In this document: positions 23,955 through 61,127 of the stretch, piece after piece
Position numbering within the stretch: position 1 is the stretch's first letter
Layout: every line of letters begins with the position of its first letter
Program-made: the position numbers and the translations under genes
Notes under the pieces: generated by a model
Database searches by the model: none
Seen by the model: the letters and a program-made list of their open reading frames with translations, nothing else
What the model was told of the DNA's origin: nothing
Source of the DNA: Escherichia phage BF17
Strand: one strand, 5' to 3'
Sequence record: MW822008.1
Length of the DNA stretch: 64,000 nt

Positions 23955-24053
23955 GGGCATGTTGTGGCACTGAATGTAGTAGAAATTATTCTTCTTGTAA
24001 TTCACTGCATTGTATGTTACTATTATGTAAAATCGGATGATAAAAAAATATGA
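23886..24053 (+). CDS. small hydrophobic protein, start uncertain
   Basis: ORF-track 23847..24053 spans repeat junction; in-frame ATGs at 23886 and 23925. Confidence 0.3.
   Translation: MKKTLTIFVIPTIMLLLSLTVPQGHVVALNVVEIILLVIHCIVCYYYVKSDDKKI
23898..23926 (+). promoter_or_regulatory. sigma70-like promoter in second repeat copy
   Basis: ttgaca 23898-23903, tataat 23921-23926; first copy has degenerate -35 (tggaca). Confidence 0.5.
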
Positions 24054-24472
24054 AGTACTATCGAATTCGAGTTGGTGTAAGCTCTGGTTTTAGTAATTGG
24101 GTATATTATGATTTACCTGATAGCTATACCGTAGAAGATGTAATTGACTTATATTATGAAGAAGAGTCATGGGTATCCAGTACTGAAACACACAGTGTTG
24201 TGTGTGAAGAACTGAGTGCTGAAGATTACAAGCACTGTACCCAAGCAATGAAGTATTACAGTAAAGATGTGAAGATGTTATCTGAAAACGTTTTTCCTGT
24301 AAAAGAATGGGCAATTTTGCTTGCAAATCCTAACAAACCTGTTAGAATAGGTTATCCAAACAATCATATGGTTTATCGAATGAATGATAAACGTGAGCTA
24401 AGTTATCAGTATGATTACAGTGCTTCTAAGTTTGGAGTTCTAAAACAATTTATGAAGGCTTATCCAGTATGA
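24050..24472 (+). CDS. hypothetical protein
   Basis: ORF track; ATGA overlap. Confidence 0.5.
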   Translation: MKYYRIRVGVSSGFSNWVYYDLPDSYTVEDVIDLYYEEESWVSSTETHSVVCEELSAEDYKHCTQAMKYYSKDVKMLSENVFPVKEWAILLANPNKPVRIGYPNNHMVYRMNDKRELSYQYDYSASKFGVLKQFMKAYPV

Positions 24473-24804
24473 GCAAAGACAGCAAAGAATTTATAGTGCG
24501 TTGTAGTTGTGGCGATAATACGGAACATTGTGTTCACATTTCACAATTTGACTTGACACAAGAACATGGAGATGATAAACTTGGTCAATGTCTGGTGAGT
24601 ATGCGTTTGAATCCTTTCTTAAAATGGTACAAACGTGTATGGGTTGCATTGAAGTATATTTTCGGCGTAAACGACTTTCAATACAAAGAAGCAATGATTG
24701 ATGTTGACATTCTGAAAGAAGTTGTGTTACAATTAGAAGATACCCGCTCCGATGAGGTAAAGAAAGAAGAAAGAGATAAACGTACTGATGTGAAGGTTTT
24801 ATGA
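24469..24804 (+). CDS. hypothetical protein
   Basis: ORF track; ATGA overlap. Confidence 0.5.
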   Translation: MSKDSKEFIVRCSCGDNTEHCVHISQFDLTQEHGDDKLGQCLVSMRLNPFLKWYKRVWVALKYIFGVNDFQYKEAMIDVDILKEVVLQLEDTRSDEVKKEERDKRTDVKVL

Positions 24805-24998: not shown

Positions 24999-25427
24999 AT
25001 GAATATCGAACAAACTATCCGTAACCACTCTTTCTTCGCTGCTGAAACTGGTCGTGTAATCGAGAGCGTCAAAATTGAAGAACTGATGATTAACGTTAAA
25101 TATAAAGAACTGAATGATGAGATTAGCAGCACCATTTGTGCACTACGTGCTCCATTCCGTTCTGAAGCAGCTAAGAAACCTGCCTATGTACTGGCGATTG
25201 CATTGGGTTGTGTAGTGAAATTGGTCGTTGATGAAAATCAACTAAATATCAAAGTTGCTCCAACCAACGATGAAGAAAACATCGACCTGAACTTTGAAGG
25301 TAATCTGGCTGAAGACGTATTCTTCCAACAATCACTGGTTTATGATTTCCGTACTGTAACTCATGACCACATCAACTTTGTCAATGAGATGGTTGACATT
25401 GTAGCTGAATACGAAGCTTCCCTATAA
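24999..25427 (+). CDS. family-A paralog (C-terminal EE-x-FFQ-x-S module)
   Basis: C-terminal EDVFFQQSLVYD. Confidence 0.6.
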   Translation: MNIEQTIRNHSFFAAETGRVIESVKIEELMINVKYKELNDEISSTICALRAPFRSEAAKKPAYVLAIALGCVVKLVVDENQLNIKVAPTNDEENIDLNFEGNLAEDVFFQQSLVYDFRTVTHDHINFVNEMVDIVAEYEASL

Positions 25428-25440
25428 TTAGATTAACAAA

Positions 25441-25463
25441 AGCCTCCGTAATGGGGGCTTTTC
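25441..25463 (+). terminator. terminator-like hairpin
   Basis: agcctccgtaatgggggct then TTT. Confidence 0.45.
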
Positions 25464-25482
25464 CAACATAAGGATATGAATA

Positions 25483-26034
25483 ATGATTGACCAAATTAAA
25501 ATCCTAACTGAACAAATCACTGATTTTCTAGCAGATAAAGATGGATTCAGTACTGAAGTTAAAATGCATGGTGTTAGTCTCGATGTAACTGCACCAAATG
25601 GCGAAACAACCAATTATGATATGTATGAAATCCTACTTTATACATTGGCTGTTCGTAAACTTGGTAGTGATATTGAACTAAACATTAACAAAACCGAGAA
25701 CGGTGACCAAGTGTTTGCAATCAACACTGGTGCACAAATGGACGTGGTAGCTGAAATCAACAAGATCAACCAATCTTTTGTGGGTTTCAAGCATGATACA
25801 ATCCAATCTGTGTTCCTGGGTAAACAAACCGGAAACAGCCACTGTCCTTATTGTGTAATGACAACCTATAAGAATGGTAACTGGATGCGTCAGGATCTAG
25901 TACTTGCTGAAATGCTTTATGCAATCACACACGGCCTAGAACTTGAACTTGATGATAGCGTGTACTGTTTCAAGAAAATCCGTAAACTTTCTGGTGATAT
26001 ACAAGCTCAATTAAAAGAATTAAATGATAAATAA
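25483..26034 (+). CDS. hypothetical protein
   Basis: ORF track; RBS aaggat. Confidence 0.55.
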   Translation: MIDQIKILTEQITDFLADKDGFSTEVKMHGVSLDVTAPNGETTNYDMYEILLYTLAVRKLGSDIELNINKTENGDQVFAINTGAQMDVVAEINKINQSFVGFKHDTIQSVFLGKQTGNSHCPYCVMTTYKNGNWMRQDLVLAEMLYAITHGLELELDDSVYCFKKIRKLSGDIQAQLKELNDK

Positions 26035-26146
26035 TTATACCAGTAATGGTTAACATTATCATGTTACTTTCCTCCCTTACATAATAATGATGCGTTATTA
26101 TTTTATTGTATTATTCCCCTTTTTCGTACAAAATCTTTTTCGTACT

Positions 26147-26170
26147 GCCCCGACCTTCGGGGCATTTTTC
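26147..26170 (+). terminator. rho-independent terminator
   Basis: gccccgaccttcggggc plus TTTTT. Confidence 0.7.
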
Positions 26171-26191
26171 TTGTCTAAATTTTGAGGTTCT

Positions 26192-26587
26192 ATGAATAAT
26201 ACTATTGGTAGTACAATATCTAAACCACTCTCTTATTACCTTGAAAAATTCAGAAGTACAAATGGTAAAAAATTTAATGGCATATACCAATTCTCACATA
26301 AAGAATATATCACAGTTGATTGTTATTCAAATAAACTTATGTACGTAGATGATACTGAATACTGTATGAAATTGTCATTGGATGTAGAATTAGATAAGTT
26401 AACATTTATTGAATATACATCCAAAAGAACATCATTTCTTGGGAAATGTAATCGAAAAGTATATAAAAATATTTCAATGTACTTAAATGAAGATTACCAC
26501 TTCCAACAAACAACGATTGAAGATGTTCTATTCAGTACTGAAGAATTGAAAGAACTATATTATTGGTATAAGAAATTTACAACTTGA
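26192..26587 (+). CDS. family-A paralog
   Basis: C-terminal NEDYHFQQTTIED. Confidence 0.55.
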   Translation: MNNTIGSTISKPLSYYLEKFRSTNGKKFNGIYQFSHKEYITVDCYSNKLMYVDDTEYCMKLSLDVELDKLTFIEYTSKRTSFLGKCNRKVYKNISMYLNEDYHFQQTTIEDVLFSTEELKELYYWYKKFTT

Positions 26588-26642
26588 CATTATCGTGGAT
26601 TTATCCTACACTGTAAGATAATGATGAATAGAGGATAAATTT

Positions 26643-27053
26643 ATGAGTTTAGATTTACACAATGAACTAAAATATTATTTCGATTTGGATATATCACATT
26701 TGAACCAACACGTCAATTATATGACTAGTACTATTTGGTGGTCTGATGAGTTTGATGAACCAAAAATCCAACTTTGTGGTGATTTGTCCGTTTTGAGGTT
26801 GTATGCCCTTGATTCGGAAATGAATATCAAGATCACATACATACCATACACAAACAAACTTATTGTAAACACCCTAAACCCAGTTACAGTATTGAAAATT
26901 TCTGATTTGGACACGATACAGTCAGATGAATCACTATTCCAACGTTCTTTGATTGATGATATGGGTGGTATTTTATATGAAGATATTGTACAATTGAAGA
27001 AGATGTATAGTGAATTGTTAGAAATTAAAAACACAGTAATTGTGGGGAGTTGA
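26643..27053 (+). CDS. family-A paralog
   Basis: C-terminal DESLFQRSLIDD; RBS gagga. Confidence 0.6.
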   Translation: MSLDLHNELKYYFDLDISHLNQHVNYMTSTIWWSDEFDEPKIQLCGDLSVLRLYALDSEMNIKITYIPYTNKLIVNTLNPVTVLKISDLDTIQSDESLFQRSLIDDMGGILYEDIVQLKKMYSELLEIKNTVIVGS

Positions 27054-27054
27054 T

Positions 27055-27459
27055 ATGGTAAGTTTACTTGATATTGATAATACCAGTCTAGTACTGGCAA
27101 AAAAAGGTGTAATTCCCAATTCTACAAAAATTGATTATGCAGTTATTGAAACAAATATTGGAAATATCTGGTATGACTCCGAAAGGGATATTGTGATTAG
27201 CTGCGTAGACAGTGACCGTGCTGAGTGTTGTAGGGTTGGTCATGACGGGCAATTTATTTTCGAATTCCGTTACTGGAAAGATGCTAAATTCCATCATGAG
27301 CATGTTTCAATTACAGGTGTGTATTGCACCGAAGAATCGTTCTTCATGGATAGTACTGTTAATGATTTTGGTTCAGTTACATTTGAGTACTATAAAAAAG
27401 TATACAACGTATCCAGAGAAGTAATGCGAATCATCAGAAATGCTGAGGGCCAAGATTAA
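27055..27459 (+). CDS. family-A paralog
   Basis: C-terminal TEESFFMDSTVND; ATG 27055 with RBS ggggag preferred over ORF-track TTG 27040. Confidence 0.55.
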   Translation: MVSLLDIDNTSLVLAKKGVIPNSTKIDYAVIETNIGNIWYDSERDIVISCVDSDRAECCRVGHDGQFIFEFRYWKDAKFHHEHVSITGVYCTEESFFMDSTVNDFGSVTFEYYKKVYNVSREVMRIIRNAEGQD

Positions 27460-27460
27460 C

Positions 27461-27835
27461 ATGACTACTATATATGACATTCTAGGTGACTTGAATAAAA
27501 ATATAGATAATGATTTTGTTATTGTTGGAACTACACAAAATATAATCCATCTTCCATTGGGTACACCAGATAGGTTAATTTTTAATATATACGGAAAAAC
27601 ACTGACATACCTACACAATGGTATGGTTATATTGGTACTTGATATTAAAGAAAATACAATACGATATGCATATGACTTCAACGATTATTGGTCAAGAACC
27701 CATAGTATTGATATTGAGGAAGATGAACTATTTCAATTGTCGTTAATCGAGAAAAATGTAATAGGAGTTACCGAAATTGGCATTGTTAAAAAAGCATTAG
27801 AATATGTAAATAGCAAATTAAATGGTGAGCTATGA
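27461..27835 (+). CDS. family-A paralog
   Basis: C-terminal EEDELFQLSLIEK; ATG 27461 just after upstream stop preferred over 27440. Confidence 0.55.
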   Translation: MTTIYDILGDLNKNIDNDFVIVGTTQNIIHLPLGTPDRLIFNIYGKTLTYLHNGMVILVLDIKENTIRYAYDFNDYWSRTHSIDIEEDELFQLSLIEKNVIGVTEIGIVKKALEYVNSKLNGEL

Positions 27836-28287
27836 TGAAAATTGATGAAATAAAAAATCATTTTGAAATTGCATTGTCTTGTAAATTTGATGGCTCTTAT
27901 GTTCCTGATCCAGAAGAGATAATTAGAATTTCCACATCGTTTTCGGAAGAGTACAATGTTCTTATTGAGAAAACATATGACAGCACTGAACTCGCATTTT
28001 ACAATAAGAATTCACGAACAACAACATTTATATTATTATATAACACAACATCGGATATAATAGAAATTATAACATGTAAAACAAGCAAAGATATACATTA
28101 TGAGACTATCTCAAATGTGAGTTATTGCTCAACTGAAGAAGGATACTTTCAGGAATCTCTTGTTAAAAATTTAACAGTTAGTTATTCTGATTTAAGCACT
28201 ATAATCAATTGTGTTGAAAAGCTAAATGATTTCGTTCTATCTATGTTTGATATCACAGAGCAAAACCCGAAGGTAATCAAATGCTAA
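27832..28287 (+). CDS. family-A paralog
   Basis: C-terminal TEEGYFQESLVKN. Confidence 0.6.
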   Translation: MMKIDEIKNHFEIALSCKFDGSYVPDPEEIIRISTSFSEEYNVLIEKTYDSTELAFYNKNSRTTTFILLYNTTSDIIEIITCKTSKDIHYETISNVSYCSTEEGYFQESLVKNLTVSYSDLSTIINCVEKLNDFVLSMFDITEQNPKVIKC

Positions 28288-28736
28288 ATCCAGGACAGTT
28301 TTTTCATTTACTTGGTATTACACCTATACCGGATTTAATCAGTGAAGCGAATCAATATCGTGATATAGGAATTGTATCTATGGAATACGATTCACCTGAC
28401 TTTAAATGTTACGTAACATATGATTTGGTAGCCTATGAGTCAGAAACTGAGATAAAAAAACCATCATACATTTTTGTGTTCATATATAATGATTATAGTG
28501 GTGATCTACTCAATGATGTTCATATTGACACATTTGAAATATGTGATAATATTATAACAGATGATTCATCATGTACATTTGATTTATCAGAAAACAGTAC
28601 TGAAGAGGCACTTTTTCAGTTGAGCACTGTTAGTGACACTGTACTAACTCTTGATGACATTGAGAAATTTAAAGAACAGCTTGACGCAGTACGTGAGATG
28701 TTCTATAATCATTATCCAGAAATCGAGTTCAATTAA
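28281..28736 (+). CDS. family-A paralog
   Basis: C-terminal TEEALFQLSTVSD. Confidence 0.6.
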   Translation: MLNPGQFFHLLGITPIPDLISEANQYRDIGIVSMEYDSPDFKCYVTYDLVAYESETEIKKPSYIFVFIYNDYSGDLLNDVHIDTFEICDNIITDDSSCTFDLSENSTEEALFQLSTVSDTVLTLDDIEKFKEQLDAVREMFYNHYPEIEFN

Positions 28737-29393: not shown

Positions 29394-30254
29394 ATGAAAC
29401 CTATCAGAGTACTGTCACTTTTTAATGGAATGAGCGTTGGATATATGGCATTGGCAGATGCAGGTATTCCAGTTGAAAAATATTACTCATCTGAAATTGA
29501 CAAGTACGCAATTGCTGAATCTTCCGAGAATTTTCCTGATATTATCCAGTTAGGTGATGTGACTAAGTGGAAAGAATGGGATATTGAGTGGGATAAGATA
29601 GATTTACTCATGGGAGGATTCCCATGTCAAGCCTGGTCTGTTGCTGGTAAGCAAGGTGGCTTGAATGATATACGTGGACAGTTATTTTTGGTTATGGTTG
29701 ACATTTTTGAGCACATCAAAAGTGTAAATCCAAACTTGCAATTTCTGTTCGAGAATGTTAAAATGAAGGAAGATTTCAAAGAATACATTAATAGTATTTT
29801 AGGAATCACACCAGTACTGATAAATTCCCAGCATTATACGCCTCACTTCAGGCAGAGATACTACTGGTGCAGTACTGATAAGCTTTTTATACCACCTGCA
29901 TTATCAAATGCCCCTAAACTTCAAGATATCATTGAAGATGGTTGGTACACTGACAGAACCGCTTCGTACTGTATAGATGCTAACTATTTTAAGGGTGGTG
30001 ATTGTAACCAGTACTTTAATAAATCAAGACGACAGTTGGTGTTTCGTGACCCAACGATTAATCGTCAATATCTATTGGAGAATGGTAAAAGAAATATTGA
30101 CTATAGACACTTAAGTGTAGTAGAATGTTGTAAATTACAGGGTATTCCTGTAGATTTCTTTAAAGTGTCTAGTAAGACACAAGCATACAAAATGCTTGGG
30201 AATGGATGGACTATGCCAGTTATATCACACTTACTAAGAGAGATATTCTTTTGA
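29394..30254 (+). CDS. DNA (cytosine-5)-methyltransferase, compact
   Basis: Motif I FNGMSVG, motif IV GGFPCQAWSVAGK, motif VI FLFENV, motif VIII-like FRQRYYW. Confidence 0.65.
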   Translation: MKPIRVLSLFNGMSVGYMALADAGIPVEKYYSSEIDKYAIAESSENFPDIIQLGDVTKWKEWDIEWDKIDLLMGGFPCQAWSVAGKQGGLNDIRGQLFLVMVDIFEHIKSVNPNLQFLFENVKMKEDFKEYINSILGITPVLINSQHYTPHFRQRYYWCSTDKLFIPPALSNAPKLQDIIEDGWYTDRTASYCIDANYFKGGDCNQYFNKSRRQLVFRDPTINRQYLLENGKRNIDYRHLSVVECCKLQGIPVDFFKVSSKTQAYKMLGNGWTMPVISHLLREIFF

Positions 30255-30780: not shown

Positions 30781-31293
30781 ATGACAGTTCCTTATGTTAA
30801 AATTATTAATAATATCCTTGATTCGTGGGAAGATGTTATTACTGGTAAAAAGAACCCAATGCCAGTACACGCACTAACCGGAAGACTACAATTCAGAATG
30901 TCAAACCAAACTGAAACTTTTAATAATCATGATGTTCACATTACTATAACACCTGTACGTATTGTAATTAAAAAAAATCAAGATGATGAATTGACATTAT
31001 CTATTGGTAGTGATAAAATCATTTTAAGTAATTTATCCGAAGAAGAATTCTTTCAACGAAGTACTATCATCGACATGAAAGATTTCACATATGAATCATT
31101 GGTTGAACTCAATACACGTTTCAACGATATTCAGGAACGATTGCGACCAATCCTCCGCAAAGAAGAAGAAGCCTGGAATGAAAGTGTGAGAAAGATGCAA
31201 GAAATGTTGAAAGAAAATATTAACAATCTGGGTAAAGCTACAATGGAATTTGGTAAAACTTTAAAACTGAACTTTTCAAAGGATCGTAAATGA
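30781..31293 (+). CDS. family-A paralog
   Basis: SEEEFFQRSTIID. Confidence 0.6.
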   Translation: MTVPYVKIINNILDSWEDVITGKKNPMPVHALTGRLQFRMSNQTETFNNHDVHITITPVRIVIKKNQDDELTLSIGSDKIILSNLSEEEFFQRSTIIDMKDFTYESLVELNTRFNDIQERLRPILRKEEEAWNESVRKMQEMLKENINNLGKATMEFGKTLKLNFSKDRK

Positions 31294-31745
31294 AAATTGA
31301 TAATTTGATTCATGTCTTAGGGACTTTACATAAAATATTATTACATCTTAACGAGATGAATAAACTAGGTTATAATGTCCATAATGTATTTGAACCTACA
31401 TTTAAATATAACTCAATCACTGGAGATGGTAATTACATAATCGAATATACATATGAAACCGATCCAGACTTCTATCCTCTTACGTTGAGAATTTATCCAA
31501 CAAATCCGATAGGAATTCACGACATATCATCAATTTCACTTGATCCAGATGGTGAAACGAGTATTGAATACAATAATGATTCAAAACCAGAATTTTACAT
31601 TGATGACATTAAAAAGTTGTTCAATGATGAATATGTTTTCCAACAAAGTACTGTGCATGATGTTGGTAGTACTACTGGGCAATTTTGGAATACATGTTAT
31701 TATCATATGATTGAAATTTGTAAATTACTAAAAGGTGTTGAATAA
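31290..31745 (+). CDS. family-A paralog
   Basis: NDEYVFQQSTVHD. Confidence 0.6.
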   Translation: MKIDNLIHVLGTLHKILLHLNEMNKLGYNVHNVFEPTFKYNSITGDGNYIIEYTYETDPDFYPLTLRIYPTNPIGIHDISSISLDPDGETSIEYNNDSKPEFYIDDIKKLFNDEYVFQQSTVHDVGSTTGQFWNTCYYHMIEICKLLKGVE

Positions 31746-32128
31746 TGAAATACTGCATTGAAGTACATTACACTACAGGTGATACTGAAAATTGTTATGA
31801 CGTTCTTAATACAATTGATATTCAATGGTCTTCTAAAGAGGAAGCAGTTGCTGCTTTACAGTGCCTAAAAGAGCATTGGGTGTTTTATATGAAGCAAGAT
31901 AATTGCTATACAAAAGAACACGAAACGATCATGGAAAATGCTAAACAAAAAGAGTGGTTTGACCCAATATCACCAGAATATTCATTCTTGGTTAAAGTTG
32001 GCGATGTGACTGTTCCATTACGAACACCGTGGAACGGCTACTTTGAAACGCTTCATAATGCACGAGTTGTCGCTGTTGATAACCCTGAACAAATCGATTT
32101 CGATTCATTGGACTGGAAAAAACTATGA
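31745..32128 (+). CDS. hypothetical protein
   Basis: ORF track. Confidence 0.5.
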   Translation: MKYCIEVHYTTGDTENCYDVLNTIDIQWSSKEEAVAALQCLKEHWVFYMKQDNCYTKEHETIMENAKQKEWFDPISPEYSFLVKVGDVTVPLRTPWNGYFETLHNARVVAVDNPEQIDFDSLDWKKL

Positions 32129-32568
32129 CAGTACTGCACCGATTGAAGAAGGTTAAGCATCCAGTTGTATATGAGGACTGGAAACGACAGAAGTTGCTGG
32201 GTGATTTTTATTACCCAAAATCTAAAGTTCTTGCGAATTCAAGATGTACATATTTCAAACATAATGATAAAGATACAGTATTTGTTGAAATGGGTTTCAA
32301 TCCATCAAATACAATGTTCAGCACTAACCAAACATTTTACAAATTTCATATCCAAAAAGATTCATTTTCTATCATGATTTTAAAACTTTTAGTTGAAGAT
32401 CTGCTATACCGTGGTGAACGTGTTCCTTTATCATTAGTGGATATTCCTTATAATAATTTAGAGGAAATGTACTTCCAACAGTTGACAGTACAAGAAAACT
32501 TCGGTATGATAGGACTTCAAGAGTTAGAGATGATTAAGCAAATTCGTGATATCTACTTTAAGGAGTAA
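32125..32568 (+). CDS. family-A paralog
   Basis: LEEMYFQQLTVQE. Confidence 0.55.
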   Translation: MTVLHRLKKVKHPVVYEDWKRQKLLGDFYYPKSKVLANSRCTYFKHNDKDTVFVEMGFNPSNTMFSTNQTFYKFHIQKDSFSIMILKLLVEDLLYRGERVPLSLVDIPYNNLEEMYFQQLTVQENFGMIGLQELEMIKQIRDIYFKE

Positions 32569-36960: not shown

Positions 36961-37353
36961 ATGACTGAATCAGAACTACATGAAATGATAGATTTCATTT
37001 ATGAAATGATACAAGATAAAAATAACATCAATACAATTATTTCTGGTCCAAGACAAATTGGTAATCAAATGACATATTCTTTATCTTTATGGATAAAACA
37101 GAACTACAAAGTTGATTGTTTGTATTTCCGTCCTGATATTGATGCTTATTATTTTGTCAATCATGATGCATTAATGAAACCAAATAAGCGTCCAGTTGAT
37201 GATACCTTTGTGACACACCCATTTTACCTGGCTGATTCCGAAGAAGATGAGTTTCAAAAGAACACAACGTTAAGCCCAGGTGAAATTTGCATCCCTTACA
37301 CACTAAAAGATAAAATGATTTACATCACAGAAGTTATGAAAACATGCTGGTAA
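36961..37353 (+). CDS. family-A paralog (divergent)
   Basis: SEEDEFQKNTTLS. Confidence 0.5.
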   Translation: MTESELHEMIDFIYEMIQDKNNINTIISGPRQIGNQMTYSLSLWIKQNYKVDCLYFRPDIDAYYFVNHDALMKPNKRPVDDTFVTHPFYLADSEEDEFQKNTTLSPGEICIPYTLKDKMIYITEVMKTCW

Positions 37354-37401: not shown

Positions 37402-37620
37402 ATGAAATTTATTAATTTTGATATTTCTAAGGTCAAAGAATTATTTGTAAGAAATGCAGTTTATGATATCATGTTACATAACGGTACTGTACAAGAAGAT
37501 GTTGTATTGTTTTCGTTTGATGGTGAAAATCTCGAAACTATATATAAATTCAGCAACTTAGATGGTGACTTTTGGGAAACCAGTGCTGTTAAAATGTATA
37601 GAATTAAAAAGGAGCATTAA
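37402..37620 (+). CDS. hypothetical small protein
   Basis: ATG 37402 with RBS aggagg. Confidence 0.5.
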   Translation: MKFINFDISKVKELFVRNAVYDIMLHNGTVQEDVVLFSFDGENLETIYKFSNLDGDFWETSAVKMYRIKKEH

Positions 37621-37621
37621 T

Positions 37622-38110
37622 ATGCCAATTCGTGGTGTACCAGAACCATTAATGGAAGTTATTAAGCATGTTCGCATTGGAGATCGAGAAGTTAATCTTC
37701 GCCGTAATAACATTTTTTACTTTAAAACTTCAGAAATGAGTTCTGTACAGATTGTCATTGGTACATCTATTAAGATTACTCGTGTACTTGATGGTAGTAC
37801 TGACTTCGTTGAATATAATGTACTTACTAATAAAGTAACGCATATATATAAATGGAGTGGGTATAAAACTATTAAGTATGAATTTGACTTAGCTAGAACT
37901 GAAGAAGAACGATTTATGCTGAGTACTATCAATCCAGCAAACTATCCTGACCTTGATGCATTTTTGCTAATTTTAAAATTGTATAATGAAGCAAATCAGA
38001 AAGCCAAAGATTATGATAGAATCATGTATGAACGCCGAAAAGAACGTGCACAAAAAAGTTATGATCTGTATGATAGCCCATACGTGAAATATAGTAAGGG
38101 GTCGAAATGA
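37622..38110 (+). CDS. family-A paralog
   Basis: TEEERFMLSTINP; ATG 37622 with RBS aaggag preferred over 37562. Confidence 0.55.
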   Translation: MPIRGVPEPLMEVIKHVRIGDREVNLRRNNIFYFKTSEMSSVQIVIGTSIKITRVLDGSTDFVEYNVLTNKVTHIYKWSGYKTIKYEFDLARTEEERFMLSTINPANYPDLDAFLLILKLYNEANQKAKDYDRIMYERRKERAQKSYDLYDSPYVKYSKGSK

Positions 38111-38511
38111 ATAAAGAAGTTCAAATTATCATAACTCCACCTATACAAAGTCTGGATGTATCCATTAGTGATTTTTTGGAAAAATACTATGAATGGTTTA
38201 ATGAAGATTCAGTAATTTATAACCATTCATTACCTGATGGTTTCGTTGAGCTTATTGAATTAAATGCCAAATCACTATACTTCTGTGTTGAATACAATGA
38301 TTATATGACAGATGAAGCATATCGTTTTCGTTGTACATTGTATCCTAACCATTTTTCCATTGGTTATAAAGACTATCAGTACTGCACCACAAACTATAGT
38401 GTAGAGGAAGAATTTCAGTACAATTTACTTTATCCTGATTTAGATTATACGATTGCAGTACTGTTGACTAAAATCATGGATTTTTATAAAGATAAATATA
38501 ATGCAGCCTAA
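38107..38511 (+). CDS. family-A paralog (divergent)
   Basis: VEEEFQYNLLYPD. Confidence 0.5.
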   Translation: MNKEVQIIITPPIQSLDVSISDFLEKYYEWFNEDSVIYNHSLPDGFVELIELNAKSLYFCVEYNDYMTDEAYRFRCTLYPNHFSIGYKDYQYCTTNYSVEEEFQYNLLYPDLDYTIAVLLTKIMDFYKDKYNAA

Positions 38512-40682: not shown

Positions 40683-41136
<454 letters not shown>

Positions 41137-41875: not shown

Positions 41876-42685
<810 letters not shown>

Positions 42686-43917: not shown

Positions 43918-44000
<83 letters not shown>

Positions 44001-44003
44001 TCA

Positions 44004-44076
<73 letters not shown>

Positions 44077-44093
44077 CAAAATAAAGGTACACT

Positions 44094-44510
44094 ATGAAAT
44101 ACAACATTGTCAAAATGGTGAACTACGTATTAAAAAACAACGCATGGTCACTGCATGATGTACAATTAGAAGATATTGGTGAAGTTAGAGTTTTTTGCTA
44201 TGATGGCGATTTGAACGAAACCACTGATTTGAGTAAATGTTTTAATATTTTTCTTGGTTATGAAATCAATAATCATTTTTATTCATTTGATGTGTATTTT
44301 GAACGAGTTAAAATCAGAATTGCTAATGTAAATAGTGATTATTATGACACTAGAATTGAATTGAATTTTGACGATATTGATACTGAAGAAAAATTCTTTC
44401 AGTACTGTCTCGTAAACGATCCAAATGGATTGACATTTGAGGACATTAAAGCTATACTTATAGTTCAAAGATTAATTCCAGAAGAGGTTATAAATCCCTT
44501 TAATGACTAG
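44094..44510 (+). CDS. family-A paralog
   Basis: TEEKFFQYCLVND. Confidence 0.6.
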   Translation: MKYNIVKMVNYVLKNNAWSLHDVQLEDIGEVRVFCYDGDLNETTDLSKCFNIFLGYEINNHFYSFDVYFERVKIRIANVNSDYYDTRIELNFDDIDTEEKFFQYCLVNDPNGLTFEDIKAILIVQRLIPEEVINPFND

Positions 44511-44862
44511 TTTAATAACTCGTATAATGCAAGATGTTCGTAAGAATCTTAATACTGGTAATTTTGATGATCCTAACATAAAAATATTATGTTATGATGG
44601 ATTCACCCTAGTACATCCATCAGAATCTAATAATTTATACATAGTATATACTTCTCCTAATCTTTTGTATCGATTTGATTTATATACTACAATGGCTAAG
44701 ATAACATTAGGTGTTTCTAAGGAGCCAATTTTTATAGCAGTACGTGATTTTGAGTACACAGAAGAGTCATTATTCCAGTACTCAATGGTAAATGACATTG
44801 GTGACTTGACATTAGAAGAGATAAATGTTATAGTTGGTATGTGTCGTTTGATTAATCCATAA
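44503..44862 (+). CDS. family-A paralog
   Basis: TEESLFQYSMVND. Confidence 0.6.
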   Translation: MTSLITRIMQDVRKNLNTGNFDDPNIKILCYDGFTLVHPSESNNLYIVYTSPNLLYRFDLYTTMAKITLGVSKEPIFIAVRDFEYTEESLFQYSMVNDIGDLTLEEINVIVGMCRLINP

Positions 44863-45351: not shown

Positions 45352-45542
45352 AATCGTTTAACCGGATAGCTTCTAGTCGGTACTGAATTCCTCCTTTTGT
45401 CTAGAAGCTATCACTCTTTTAAAGTATAATGATATCACCCTCATGGTTCATTATATTCGTTACCCTCTAACAGTATCTTTTTATTCCTCTTTGATACTGT
45501 ATTTTAGAAGTTGACATTTTTACTTCTACTGTGTTATACTTA

Positions 45543-45573
45543 AGGCTGATTCATTATGAATCGGCCTTTTTTC
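45543..45573 (+). terminator. rho-independent terminator
   Basis: aggctgattcattatgaatcggcct plus TTTTTT. Confidence 0.65.
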
Positions 45574-45590
45574 TTGTGGGGATTAATGTA

Positions 45591-46007
45591 ATGAATAAAG
45601 AAGTTATTAGTTTAATGGATGAGTATATCAACCAAACATATCGTTTTATATTTTTTAATGCATTTGAGTCCAGAACAACGTATTATTCTGGTGAATATGA
45701 GATAATAACTGGATCATTTCTTAACGGATACATGGAGTTTTTAGAACAAAGCGATAATGTGTTCATTTCCATATCTGAAAAACATGGTAATGATTATGTT
45801 ATTGATATGTGGCCTAATAAAGTAGAGATTGATACCACGCACAAAATCGTAATTGATGTGGATGAATCGTTGTATGATTTAACTGAAGATATGTACATGC
45901 AACTAAATTTCGTATACGATCTAACTAACATAAGTTATTCTAATCTAAGTAAATTATTTTATATTTGTGGTGTACTACATAAAAACGTACAACAAAATAA
46001 AGGATAA
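45591..46007 (+). CDS. family-A paralog (divergent)
   Basis: TEDMYMQLNFVYD; ATG 45591 used because ORF-track start 45531 is upstream of a terminator hairpin. Confidence 0.5.
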   Translation: MNKEVISLMDEYINQTYRFIFFNAFESRTTYYSGEYEIITGSFLNGYMEFLEQSDNVFISISEKHGNDYVIDMWPNKVEIDTTHKIVIDVDESLYDLTEDMYMQLNFVYDLTNISYSNLSKLFYICGVLHKNVQQNKG

Positions 46008-46079
46008 ACATTTAAATGTTGACAATTTACAACATAAATGGTATCTTTGAAATTGCCAGAACCCTACGAGGAAGATGAT

Positions 46080-46487
46080 ATGGTCAAAATTTTAAGTGAC
46101 AATGCAGTTGATATTGTCATTGATGTACTTGAAAACAGTAATACATTTGAGAAGAAACACAGTACTGTATACTTCGGTAAAGATTGCTGGTTGAGCTATA
46201 TATCTGATAAATCGTTTGTAATTCGTGTTGAAACGGGTGATATTGGATTTACGGTACATGCGGCACATACCAAAACTGATAAACAAATCACTGTTATTGC
46301 TGACACGCCAAGTATCTGGGATAGAATTGATGATTGTGAACACTACACGTCAACATTCTATGATACAGAAGAAGAACATTTCATGGATAGTACTGTTAAA
46401 GAATTAGCTATTCCATTTAAACTTATGAAAGCAGCAAGAGATTTTATTTTAAAATACAAAAAAATAGGAGTTGATGATGCAATTTAA
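46080..46487 (+). CDS. family-A paralog
   Basis: TEEEHFMDSTVKE; ATG 46080 with RBS gagga preferred over 46038. Confidence 0.55.
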   Translation: MVKILSDNAVDIVIDVLENSNTFEKKHSTVYFGKDCWLSYISDKSFVIRVETGDIGFTVHAAHTKTDKQITVIADTPSIWDRIDDCEHYTSTFYDTEEEHFMDSTVKELAIPFKLMKAARDFILKYKKIGVDDAI

Positions 46488-60412: not shown

Positions 60413-60612
60413 TGTTTACTTTATATCTCGCAGTAGTTCTCACCAATGGTGAAATCACTCGTACTATTGGTGAAGGTGTATATAAAACACCAGACCAGTG
60501 CTACTCTGCTACTCATTGGCCTCGCGATAGTGGGGATGAAACTCGCACTGAATTCAAATGCATGAAAGTAAAAGGTGATTTTGTTAACCTTAAGGTTATC
60601 GAGGCGAAATAA
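60413..60612 (+). CDS. hypothetical small protein
   Basis: ATG 60413 preferred over ORF-track TTG 60355. Confidence 0.4.
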
Positions 60613-61127
60613 TGGATATTAATGAGTTGTTGATCTTATTGTTTAATCGTGGAAATGATGTAAGACGTTCTGAATATCAAGACAAAATTCACATTGAAAC
60701 TGATAAATGTTATGGTAAAACAACTCATGAGATTTTGAAGCCAAATGGCAAACGATATGCCGATGTATGTTTTCATGAACGAAGTGATGGTAGTGAAATA
60801 ATCAGTACTGAAATTGTGTTTTATGATAGATCCTCGGCAGGTTCGTATGAAATAGAACTTATATATTGTCCTGGTTCAGAAACACACAATAAACGTCAGA
60901 TATTATATGATGTTTATTCACCTCCAGGTGTAGCTGAATATTTTGTTATTGATTACAGTACTGAAGAAAGTGTGTTTCAACAGAGCTTGATTCATAACTT
61001 CCAGTTGAATGATCCAAATGTACCAAAGTTGTTCAAACTACTCGATACTATCGATGTTGATTTTGAATTTGTTATGTGCATTAGAACTTCCTTGATCGAT
61101 GAATTTATGGAACTACTTAATATATGA
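60612..61127 (+). CDS. family-A paralog
   Basis: TEESVFQQSLIHN. Confidence 0.6.
   Translation: MDINELLILLFNRGNDVRRSEYQDKIHIETDKCYGKTTHEILKPNGKRYADVCFHERSDGSEIISTEIVFYDRSSAGSYEIELIYCPGSETHNKRQILYDVYSPPGVAEYFVIDYSTEESVFQQSLIHNFQLNDPNVPKLFKLLDTIDVDFEFVMCIRTSLIDEFMELLNI

Follow-up and report, generated by a model that had tools for sequence, protein, structure and literature searches.

The 64,000-nucleotide stretch of Escherichia phage BF17 analyzed here (sequence record MW822008.1; hereafter the window) carries a large family of small paralogous proteins that share a TEE-x-x-FQ-x-S motif near the C-terminus, seven of which are encoded at positions 24,999 to 28,736. The window starts with replication and nucleotide-metabolism genes (topoisomerase II, clamp loader, exonuclease), and the rest of it is an accessory region, a long run of small plus-strand genes of unknown function that also contains transfer RNA (tRNA) genes, HNH endonucleases, a Dcm-type methyltransferase, Cor- and Imm-type exclusion genes, and a sigma factor. 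About one-seventh of the genes in this 64-kilobase (kb) accessory region are members of the TEE-x-x-FQ-x-S family, and the G+C content is ~35% across the whole window. The 8 kb between positions 24000 and 32000 are 99.5% identical to Escherichia phage vB_Ec-M-J (378,573 base pairs (bp)), 99.1-99.3% identical to phages Turkey3, fEgEco12, EC.P1, Ecwhy_1, and WPEC3, and ~85% identical to 121Q, PBECO4, and phAPEC6. All of these phages are jumbo myophages, and the records of vB_Ec-M-J and phAPEC6 are classed as Asteriusvirus.

A tandemly amplified protein family

The initial annotation had described seven consecutive open reading frames (ORFs) carrying a short common block near their C-termini. All seven are present with the peptides it quoted and match annotated coding sequences of vB_Ec-M-J, and their invariant Phe lies 28-46 residues from the C-terminus. 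They are genuine paralogs, amplified in tandem and very strongly conserved in a block near the C-terminus. The seven are not strictly consecutive, however, as a non-member ORF of 183 amino acids (aa) at 25483-26034 (plus strand) separates the first from the second. This ORF has no Pfam match, but Klebsiella phage RaK2 carries one of almost the same length (ORF185) at this position, which makes it a conserved component of the locus. Just upstream of the member at 26192, at 26146-26164 (plus strand), is a strong terminator-like hairpin (8-bp stem with six G-C pairs, followed by a T-run), an indication that the other six members are transcribed as a unit apart from the first member and the non-member ORF.

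The family extends well past these seven genes. Membership was assigned on a significant match to a profile containing no window sequence, a motif at about residue 90-125, and a protein length of 110-190 aa. An iterative hidden Markov model (HMM) search of the window converged on 17 members, and the profile built without any window sequence recovered all 17 (E 4e-17 to 1e-9) together with three degenerate copies; the seven array ORFs and ten more thus show both the non-window profile match and the expected motif position (Table 1). The count of seven in the initial annotation was accordingly too low, whereas the figure of 20 that it gave in passing agrees with the 17 clear and three degenerate copies. 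The extended motif [ED][ED]xxF[QM]x[ST][TLI][IV] occurs 14 times in plus-strand ORFs of the window and never in its minus-strand ORFs, against a chance expectation of 0.006 on average and 1 at most in 2000 shuffles. Together with the HMM results, this establishes that the members are homologous and do not reflect a chance match of six to eight residues.

Both TCN and AGY codons are used for the conserved Ser, and the information content of third codon positions is about half that of first and second positions; conservation of the motif therefore acts on the protein and not on the DNA. The same codon analysis rules out a DNA-level repeat, such as a recombination or regulatory element lying inside the ORFs. 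Most of the clear members are acidic (13 of 17, isoelectric point 4.05-4.9), and the median isoelectric point of the family is 4.65, compared with 5.6 for other ORFs of >=80 aa. In vB_Ec-M-J, where we covered the stretch matching the window and 50 kb downstream, those next 50 kb contain two further weak members.

Table 1 Members of the TEE-x-x-FQ-x-S family and the syntenic methyltransferase gene in the window.
Feature	Length (aa)	Motif	Coordinates	Strand	Basis and remarks
Member 1	142	AEDVFFQQSLVYD	24999..25427	+	profile; phrog_23322
Member 2	131	NEDYHFQQTTIED	26192..26587	+	profile; phrog_33313
Member 3	136	SDESLFQRSLIDD	26643..27053	+	profile; phrog_24941
Member 4	134	TEESFFMDSTVND	27055..27459	+	profile; phrog_24510; AlphaFold-modelled protein
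Member 5	124	EEDELFQLSLIEK	27461..27835	+	profile; phrog_36084
Member 6	150	TEEGYFQESLVKN	27835..28287, alternative start 27832	+	profile; phrog_30841
Member 7	151	TEEALFQLSTVSD	28281..28736	+	profile; phrog_30548; low-confidence AlphaFold model
Dcm-type DNA cytosine methyltransferase			29394..30254	+	non-member, sits between family members; syntenic landmark conserved in RaK2 and CBB
Member 8	170	SEEEFFQRSTIID	30781..31293	+	profile; phrog_38573; long charged C-terminal extension
Member 9	151	NDEYVFQQSTVHD	31290..31745	+	profile
Member 10	147	LEEMYFQQLTVQE	32125..32568	+	profile
Degenerate member	130	SEEDEFQKNT	36961..37353	+	weak profile match, E 0.003
Member 11	182 (162 from 37622)	TEEERFMLSTINP	37562..38110	+	profile
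Marginal degenerate candidate	134	VEEEFQYNLL	38107..38511	+	profile E 0.23
Member 12	121	TEEEYFQTSTVQK	40743..41108	+	profile
Member 13	123	DEEDEFQKSTVYE	41876..42247	+	profile; no overlap with tRNA genes
Member 14	138	TEEKFFQYCLVND	44094..44510	+	profile
Member 15	119	TEESLFQYSMVND	44503..44862	+	profile
Divergent member 18	158	TEDMYMQLNFVYD	45531..46007	+	full-profile E 1e-5; invariant Phe replaced by Met
Member 16	149	TEEEHFMDSTVKE	46038..46487	+	profile
Member 17	171	TEESVFQQSLIHN	60612..61127	+	profile

A predicted single-domain architecture

The initial annotation had read the proteins as unrelated-looking N-terminal halves, each a variable domain fused to a conserved C-terminal module. 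Pairwise BLAST comparisons within the window do suggest unrelated N-domains, with similarity in 16 of 136 C-part pairs but in only one of 136 N-part pairs (members 14 and 15). This impression was overturned by a deep alignment of 132 family sequences, by N-part profiles, and by a structural model. The invariant Phe falls at residue 91-122 in every member, in proteins of 119-182 aa, and such uniform length of the N-part speaks against its being made of unrelated domains. The N-part of the deep alignment has conserved columns: I/L/V recurs at alternating positions, one column is Tyr/Phe in 108 of 130 sequences, and Asp/Asn marks several turns. For a leave-subfamily-out analysis, the N-part profile was stripped of every sequence related to the test protein by BLAST, whether directly or at second order. 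Seven of the 17 held-out N-parts then took the top rank among 83 sequences; 0.2 such cases would be expected (binomial p = 6e-10).

AlphaFold2 modelled member 4 from the deep alignment as a single domain, with a predicted local distance difference test (pLDDT) score of 73.3 and a predicted template modelling score of 0.70. The model has strands at residues 14-19, 26-30, 37-41, 45-51, 55-61, 66-75, and 78-87, followed by helices at 93-102, which is the motif itself (EESFFMDSTV), and at 110-130; its confidence is best at residues 81-120 (pLDDT 85-91). The order of secondary-structure elements was the same in a model of member 7 built from a 27-sequence alignment (pLDDT 48), which was too poor for a fold search and was used for this order alone. 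In the BFVD collection, the member 4 model matched the RaK2 protein H6X3Z4 over its full length (136 alignment columns, template modelling score 0.78, 24% identity) and likewise gave a full-length match to RaK2 H6X3Z3. Each protein is thus predicted to be a single alpha+beta domain, built of a seven-strand antiparallel beta-meander and, after it, two helices, the first short and the second long and amphipathic. The fixed position of the motif, the conserved N-part columns, the single-domain model, and the full-length structural matches all run counter to a two-part architecture.

Anatomy of the conserved motif

Across the 132 aligned sequences, the motif columns read, in order, T78/S26, E126, E118, a variable position, Y41/F40/L28, F132, Q110/M21, a variable position, S118, T78/L50, V73/I48, a variable position, and D81/N26. 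A short loop follows, after which the pattern [L/F/I/V]-T/S-[Y/L/F]-E-D/E opens the second helix; no column of the alignment has a conserved His, Lys, Arg, or Cys. By established helix-capping rules S/T-x-x-E constitutes a capping box, and both helices would appear from their sequences to open with one. When the motif helix is plotted as a wheel, only positions 95, 99, and 103 are variable, and conserved arcs are formed by F97, T/L101, Q/M98, V/I102, and position 105, and by Y96-S100-E93-D104. As three of the four faces are conserved, the Phe is invariant, and Gln alternates with Met, we read this helix as the structural core of the domain, probably wedged between the sheet and the second helix.

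Distribution among phages and synteny

An exhaustive HMM search of 1.84 billion cluster representatives (E <=1e-3) returned 126 matching proteins, each representing a cluster at 50% identity. Nearly all are 110-175 aa long with a match that ends close to the C-terminus, and the strict core F[QM]x[ST][TLMI][IVL] lies at about residue 100 in 109 of 123 new representatives; the representatives come from metagenomic contigs of up to 361 kb. One 3948-aa metagenomic protein (P0051) has four stretches that match only the N-terminal, beta-rich part of the profile (E 3.5e-6), a match that is probably spurious and due to beta-rich repeats.

A word-indexed sequence search returned only Asteriusvirus-type orthologs, and a tblastn search of a phage collection with a diverged member returned only jumbo phages: Salmonella phages Munch, 7t3, SE_PL, and PHA46; Klebsiella phages RaK2, K64-1, fENko-Kae01, Muenster, and others; Cronobacter phage GAP32; Pectobacterium phage CBB; and Escherichia phage EJP2. 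Among isolate phages, the family is therefore confined in these searches to RaK2-like jumbo myophages (Asteriusvirus, Alcyoneusvirus, Mimasvirus, and relatives).

The arrangement of the genes is also partly shared between genera. In RaK2 (Alcyoneusvirus), seven members lie within 14 kb (ORFs 184, 186, 187, 189, 191, 196, and 198) and flank the DNA methyltransferase ORF194 on both sides, much as the array of the window lies around its Dcm-type gene. A 40-kb stretch of CBB (Mimasvirus) contains only four members, which are dispersed, and of these one lies immediately upstream of the methyltransferase CBB_399; in three of the four (L005 15972-16361, 17463-17969, and 19926-20450), the motif Ser is replaced by Met (FQxM). 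Because the methyltransferase-linked arrangement is kept in RaK2 and is present in reduced form in CBB, the array predates these genera, with its largest expansion in Asteriusvirus.

Selection on the paralogs and the virion proteome

The ratio of nonsynonymous to synonymous substitution rates (dN/dS), pooled over nine ortholog pairs between the window and phAPEC6, was 0.28 for the N-part and 0.18 for the C-part, compared with 0.15 for six neighboring genes. Both halves are under purifying selection, the N-part being somewhat more relaxed, and at this resolution the pooled pairs show no trace of an arms race under way. The label of a diversifying family given in the initial annotation is not sustained by these values, nor by the conservation of the array and its methyltransferase linkage in RaK2, which belongs to a different genus.

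A role as packaged internal proteins had also been proposed, and published data from the related phage phAPEC6, a different isolate, argue against it: the phAPEC6 orthologs gp120c-121c and gp127c-134c are absent from the 62 virion proteins found by mass spectrometry (PMC7247149, Table 1), a list that includes proteins of 4.7-14 kDa. The RaK2 members, which fall within ORF184-198, are annotated as hypothetical and not as structural proteins identified by mass spectrometry, and lie outside the two structural gene clusters of that phage. As to a possible capsid-targeting sequence, the N-terminal alignment shows only the initial Met and weak hydrophobic columns, with no conserved peptide.

Searches for known relatives

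The initial annotation recognized no described family in the motif, and our searches bear this out. No Pfam family is common to the 132 members (E <=0.01), and NCBIfam gave no match for the family. Sequences in the PDB matched the profile only through tobacco etch virus (TEV) protease-site linkers (TTENLYFQGS) on unrelated expression constructs, at E ~2, and a Foldseek search of the model against the PDB gave no match below E 0.1. Eight tested members each matched one PHROG family over the full length (E 3e-43 to 4e-104): phrog_23322, 33313, 24941, 24510, 36084, 30841, 30548, and 38573, which are separate families, all listed as of unknown function. Weak cross-hits between members (E 1e-2 to 1e-5) hint at their common membership. 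The orthologous groups have thus been catalogued one by one, but PHROG has no entry that unites them or gives the shared motif and fold, and the family, motif, and fold are likewise not described in the jumbo-phage survey PMC7824862 or in the papers on RaK2, CBB, phAPEC6, fEgEco12, Sharanji, and UE-S1. A Pfam scan of the ten longest relatives found no domains; among the 132 members, one that is shorter than the nine longest of the alignment matches RecQ-1-like_HTH (E 3.7e-12), which may represent a fusion or a C-terminal extension.

Several known proteins resemble the model in its simple topology. Polo-box domains (those of PLK1-4 and Cdc5, the cryptic polo box of ZYG-1/PLK4, and the divergent polo box of kinetoplastid KKT3) show such a likeness without membership; eight proteins of the array region have no POLO_box match at E <=1, none of the 132 family members has one at E <=0.01, structural alignments show 6-12% identity, and the Foldseek scores are not significant. 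The polo box has a six-strand antiparallel sheet with one helix packed across it, the phage protein is predicted to have seven strands and two helices, and polo boxes occur in tandem, attached to a kinase, with a His/Lys phosphopeptide pincer, none of which applies to the single phage domain of 119-182 aa. The acidic, multi-ligand-binding proteins of the p32/Mam33/gC1qR group were matched by Foldseek at E 0.15 or worse, and none of the 132 members has a Pfam MAM33 match; in p32, N- and C-terminal helices flank a seven-strand sheet, and the N-terminal one is not seen in the phage model; p32 also forms trimers and belongs to a eukaryotic, mitochondrial setting. Small immunity and inhibitor proteins, such as TipC2 of the Streptococcus intermedius type VII system and those of polyimmunity loci, likewise form paralogous arrays, but they are bacterial, share no sequence similarity with the phage family, and give a weak structural score, and no cognate toxin gene lies near the phage array. 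We read these structural resemblances, as far as the model allows, as a shared simple topology typical of protein-binding modules rather than as family membership.

Other features of the window and of vB_Ec-M-J

Near its start, the window encodes on the plus strand a homolog of translation initiation factor IF3 (729-1232; Pfam IF3_N 1.4e-15 and IF3_C 5.7e-12), labelled 'translation initiation factor' in vB_Ec-M-J, and a 181-aa protein with a KTSC domain (1866-2411; Pfam 6.2e-14). The ORF at 1246-1791, adjoining the KTSC gene, is labelled 'ATP-dependent protease' in vB_Ec-M-J and has no Pfam match at E <=1e-3. Two adjacent tRNA-Thr(tgt) genes lie at 43924-43997 and 44004-44077 (plus strand), where the vB_Ec-M-J annotation has one, and the window and vB_Ec-M-J differ by an indel of about 380 bp between ~41.1 and 41.9 kb. 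A scan for sigma-70 promoters was uninformative (57 sites, compared with 47 +/- 7 expected). Elsewhere in vB_Ec-M-J, at 333-351 kb (L006 17206-34767), 14 tandem minus-strand paralogs are labelled 'regulator of chromosome condensation' (RCC1-like). Between two of them lies an unannotated plus-strand ORF of 216 aa (L006 18408-19058) that matches the family profile (E 4e-7, EEQLFQYSLI).

Discussion

The TEE-x-x-FQ-x-S proteins are a real, large, ancient, and lineage-restricted family, located next to a DNA methyltransferase gene in the accessory region. The explanation we favor, though only tentatively and with its functional part going beyond the observations, is that the ORFs are paralogs of one ancient RaK2-like jumbo-myophage family of mostly acidic, single-domain proteins of ~120-180 aa, in which the beta-sheet face and its loops would have diverged almost beyond recognition between paralogs and the motif helix would have been kept as the core. 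Within the infected cell, the proteins would then bind or inhibit different host (or phage) proteins in a stoichiometric manner, with target specificity presumably carried by the sheet and loop surface of each paralog, by analogy with polo-box-like and small immunity-protein folds, and each paralog would have been kept for a distinct target. A putative host-takeover or anti-defense role, which the initial annotation had raised, is plausible.

This interpretation must be made cautiously, however, as several observations pull the other way. The polar residues of the motif are nearly invariant (the two Glu in 126 and 118 of 132 sequences, Ser in 118, and Asp/Asn in 107), which is stronger conservation than a purely structural role usually needs and could reflect a shared functional site. 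Individual N-part profile scores fall short of significance in 16 of 17 members, and the model of member 4 is itself of moderate confidence, with pLDDT of 51-66 over the N-terminal 40 residues.

One may postulate an alternative scenario, that of the initial annotation, in which the helix-loop-helix is a common docking module that brings ~20 paralogs to a single hub, for instance host RNA polymerase, a chaperone or protease, or a phage machine, and the N-part recruits cargo, so that the array amounts to a library of adaptors. The polar residues of the motif (E, E, Q, S, and D) are indeed conserved across genera as strongly as the hydrophobic ones, and the C-part alone is recognizable in pairwise comparison and has the lower dN/dS; nevertheless, a helix with one variable face, three conserved faces, an invariant Phe, and a Q/M alternation fits a buried position better, the model places it in one domain with the beta-sheet, the N-parts are related to each other, and in none of the 126 clusters does the module stand by itself or occur joined to a recognizable unrelated domain. 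We consider this scenario unlikely, albeit the least unlikely of the alternatives. Somewhat less probable again is the related proposal that a helix with exposed E-E...S...D residues is a universal handle that plugs ~20 target-recognition sheets into one hub (protease, chaperone, or RNA polymerase); if true, the array would be a phage adaptor library that redirects one machine to many host targets, an organization that to our knowledge has not been described for phages. The same polar residues, E-E...Q...S...D together with the Tyr of the sheet, might instead form a shared pocket for a small molecule or metal, as in a sponge for a host immune signal, or for a reaction. Their clustering on one short helix and the conserved Tyr/Phe of the sheet are compatible with this, and the proteins resemble known phage sponge proteins in being small, acidic, absent from virions, and encoded in an accessory region. 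It is hard, however, to square a single ligand with ~20 diverged copies per genome, each under purifying selection, and the alignment offers no conserved His, Lys, Arg, or Cys; moreover, the replacement of Ser by Met in three of the four CBB members shows that this residue is not indispensable and argues against a catalytic serine. We regard such a pocket as improbable.

The remaining two possibilities rank lower still. If the proteins were packaged in the capsid and ejected to act at injection, the conserved module would serve to target them to the capsid or to direct their processing. A passage of PMC7247149 describes an inner body in phAPEC6 capsids, the small gene at 24469-24804 near the array is annotated as a virion structural protein in vB_Ec-M-J, and the motif resembles a protease site, but the missing phAPEC6 orthologs, in a proteome that captured proteins of 4.7-14 kDa, and the position of the RaK2 members outside the structural clusters make this very improbable. 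The likeness to a protease site can also be taken at face value, with the motif as a cleavage site of a Gln-specific (TEV/3C-like) protease, resembling E-x-x-Y-x-Q followed by S, and the only PDB sequence matches of the profile are indeed TEV-site linkers. Those matches are not significant, the residue after the Gln is variable and the conserved Ser stands two residues past it, 21 of 132 sequences have Met in place of the Gln, the segment is predicted, at the best confidence of the model, to be helical rather than an exposed linker, and the annotation of ~115 kb of vB_Ec-M-J and 14 kb of RaK2 lists no 3C/TEV-like protease. We therefore reject a protease substrate on the variable residue after the Gln, the Q/M alternation, and the helical prediction, and see it as the most far-fetched of the readings considered.

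Most jumbo-phage genes have no known function, and jumbo phages are known to have expanded sets of small proteins in particular lineages. In phAPEC6, 83% of the genes are of unknown function (PMC7247149), and 272 of the 534 ORFs of RaK2 lack database homologs (PMC3622015). Other expansions in jumbo phages have been described (PMC7824862). A comparable case in a giant phage, again with many diverged tandem paralogs of one small domain whose function is not known, differs in both fold and sequence family, and the family reported here and its motif are not described in that literature; the family is therefore new and unnamed, while the genomic phenomenon, a tandem expansion of small proteins, is of a known kind. 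Our results merge ~20 'hypothetical proteins' per genome, spread over separate PHROGs, into one superfamily that is diagnosed by its motif, has a predicted fold, and spans a defined range, that of all RaK2-like jumbo myophages. With purifying selection on each copy since before the genera split, the family is important to these phages, and the conserved helix offers an experimental handle, as there is one helix to mutate and there are twenty natural specificity variants to compare. Therapies based on RaK2-like phages are being developed, with E. coli, Klebsiella, and Salmonella as targets. Should the proteins turn out to inhibit host factors or defenses, the family would supply many new binders; otherwise, it still provides better annotation of these genomes.

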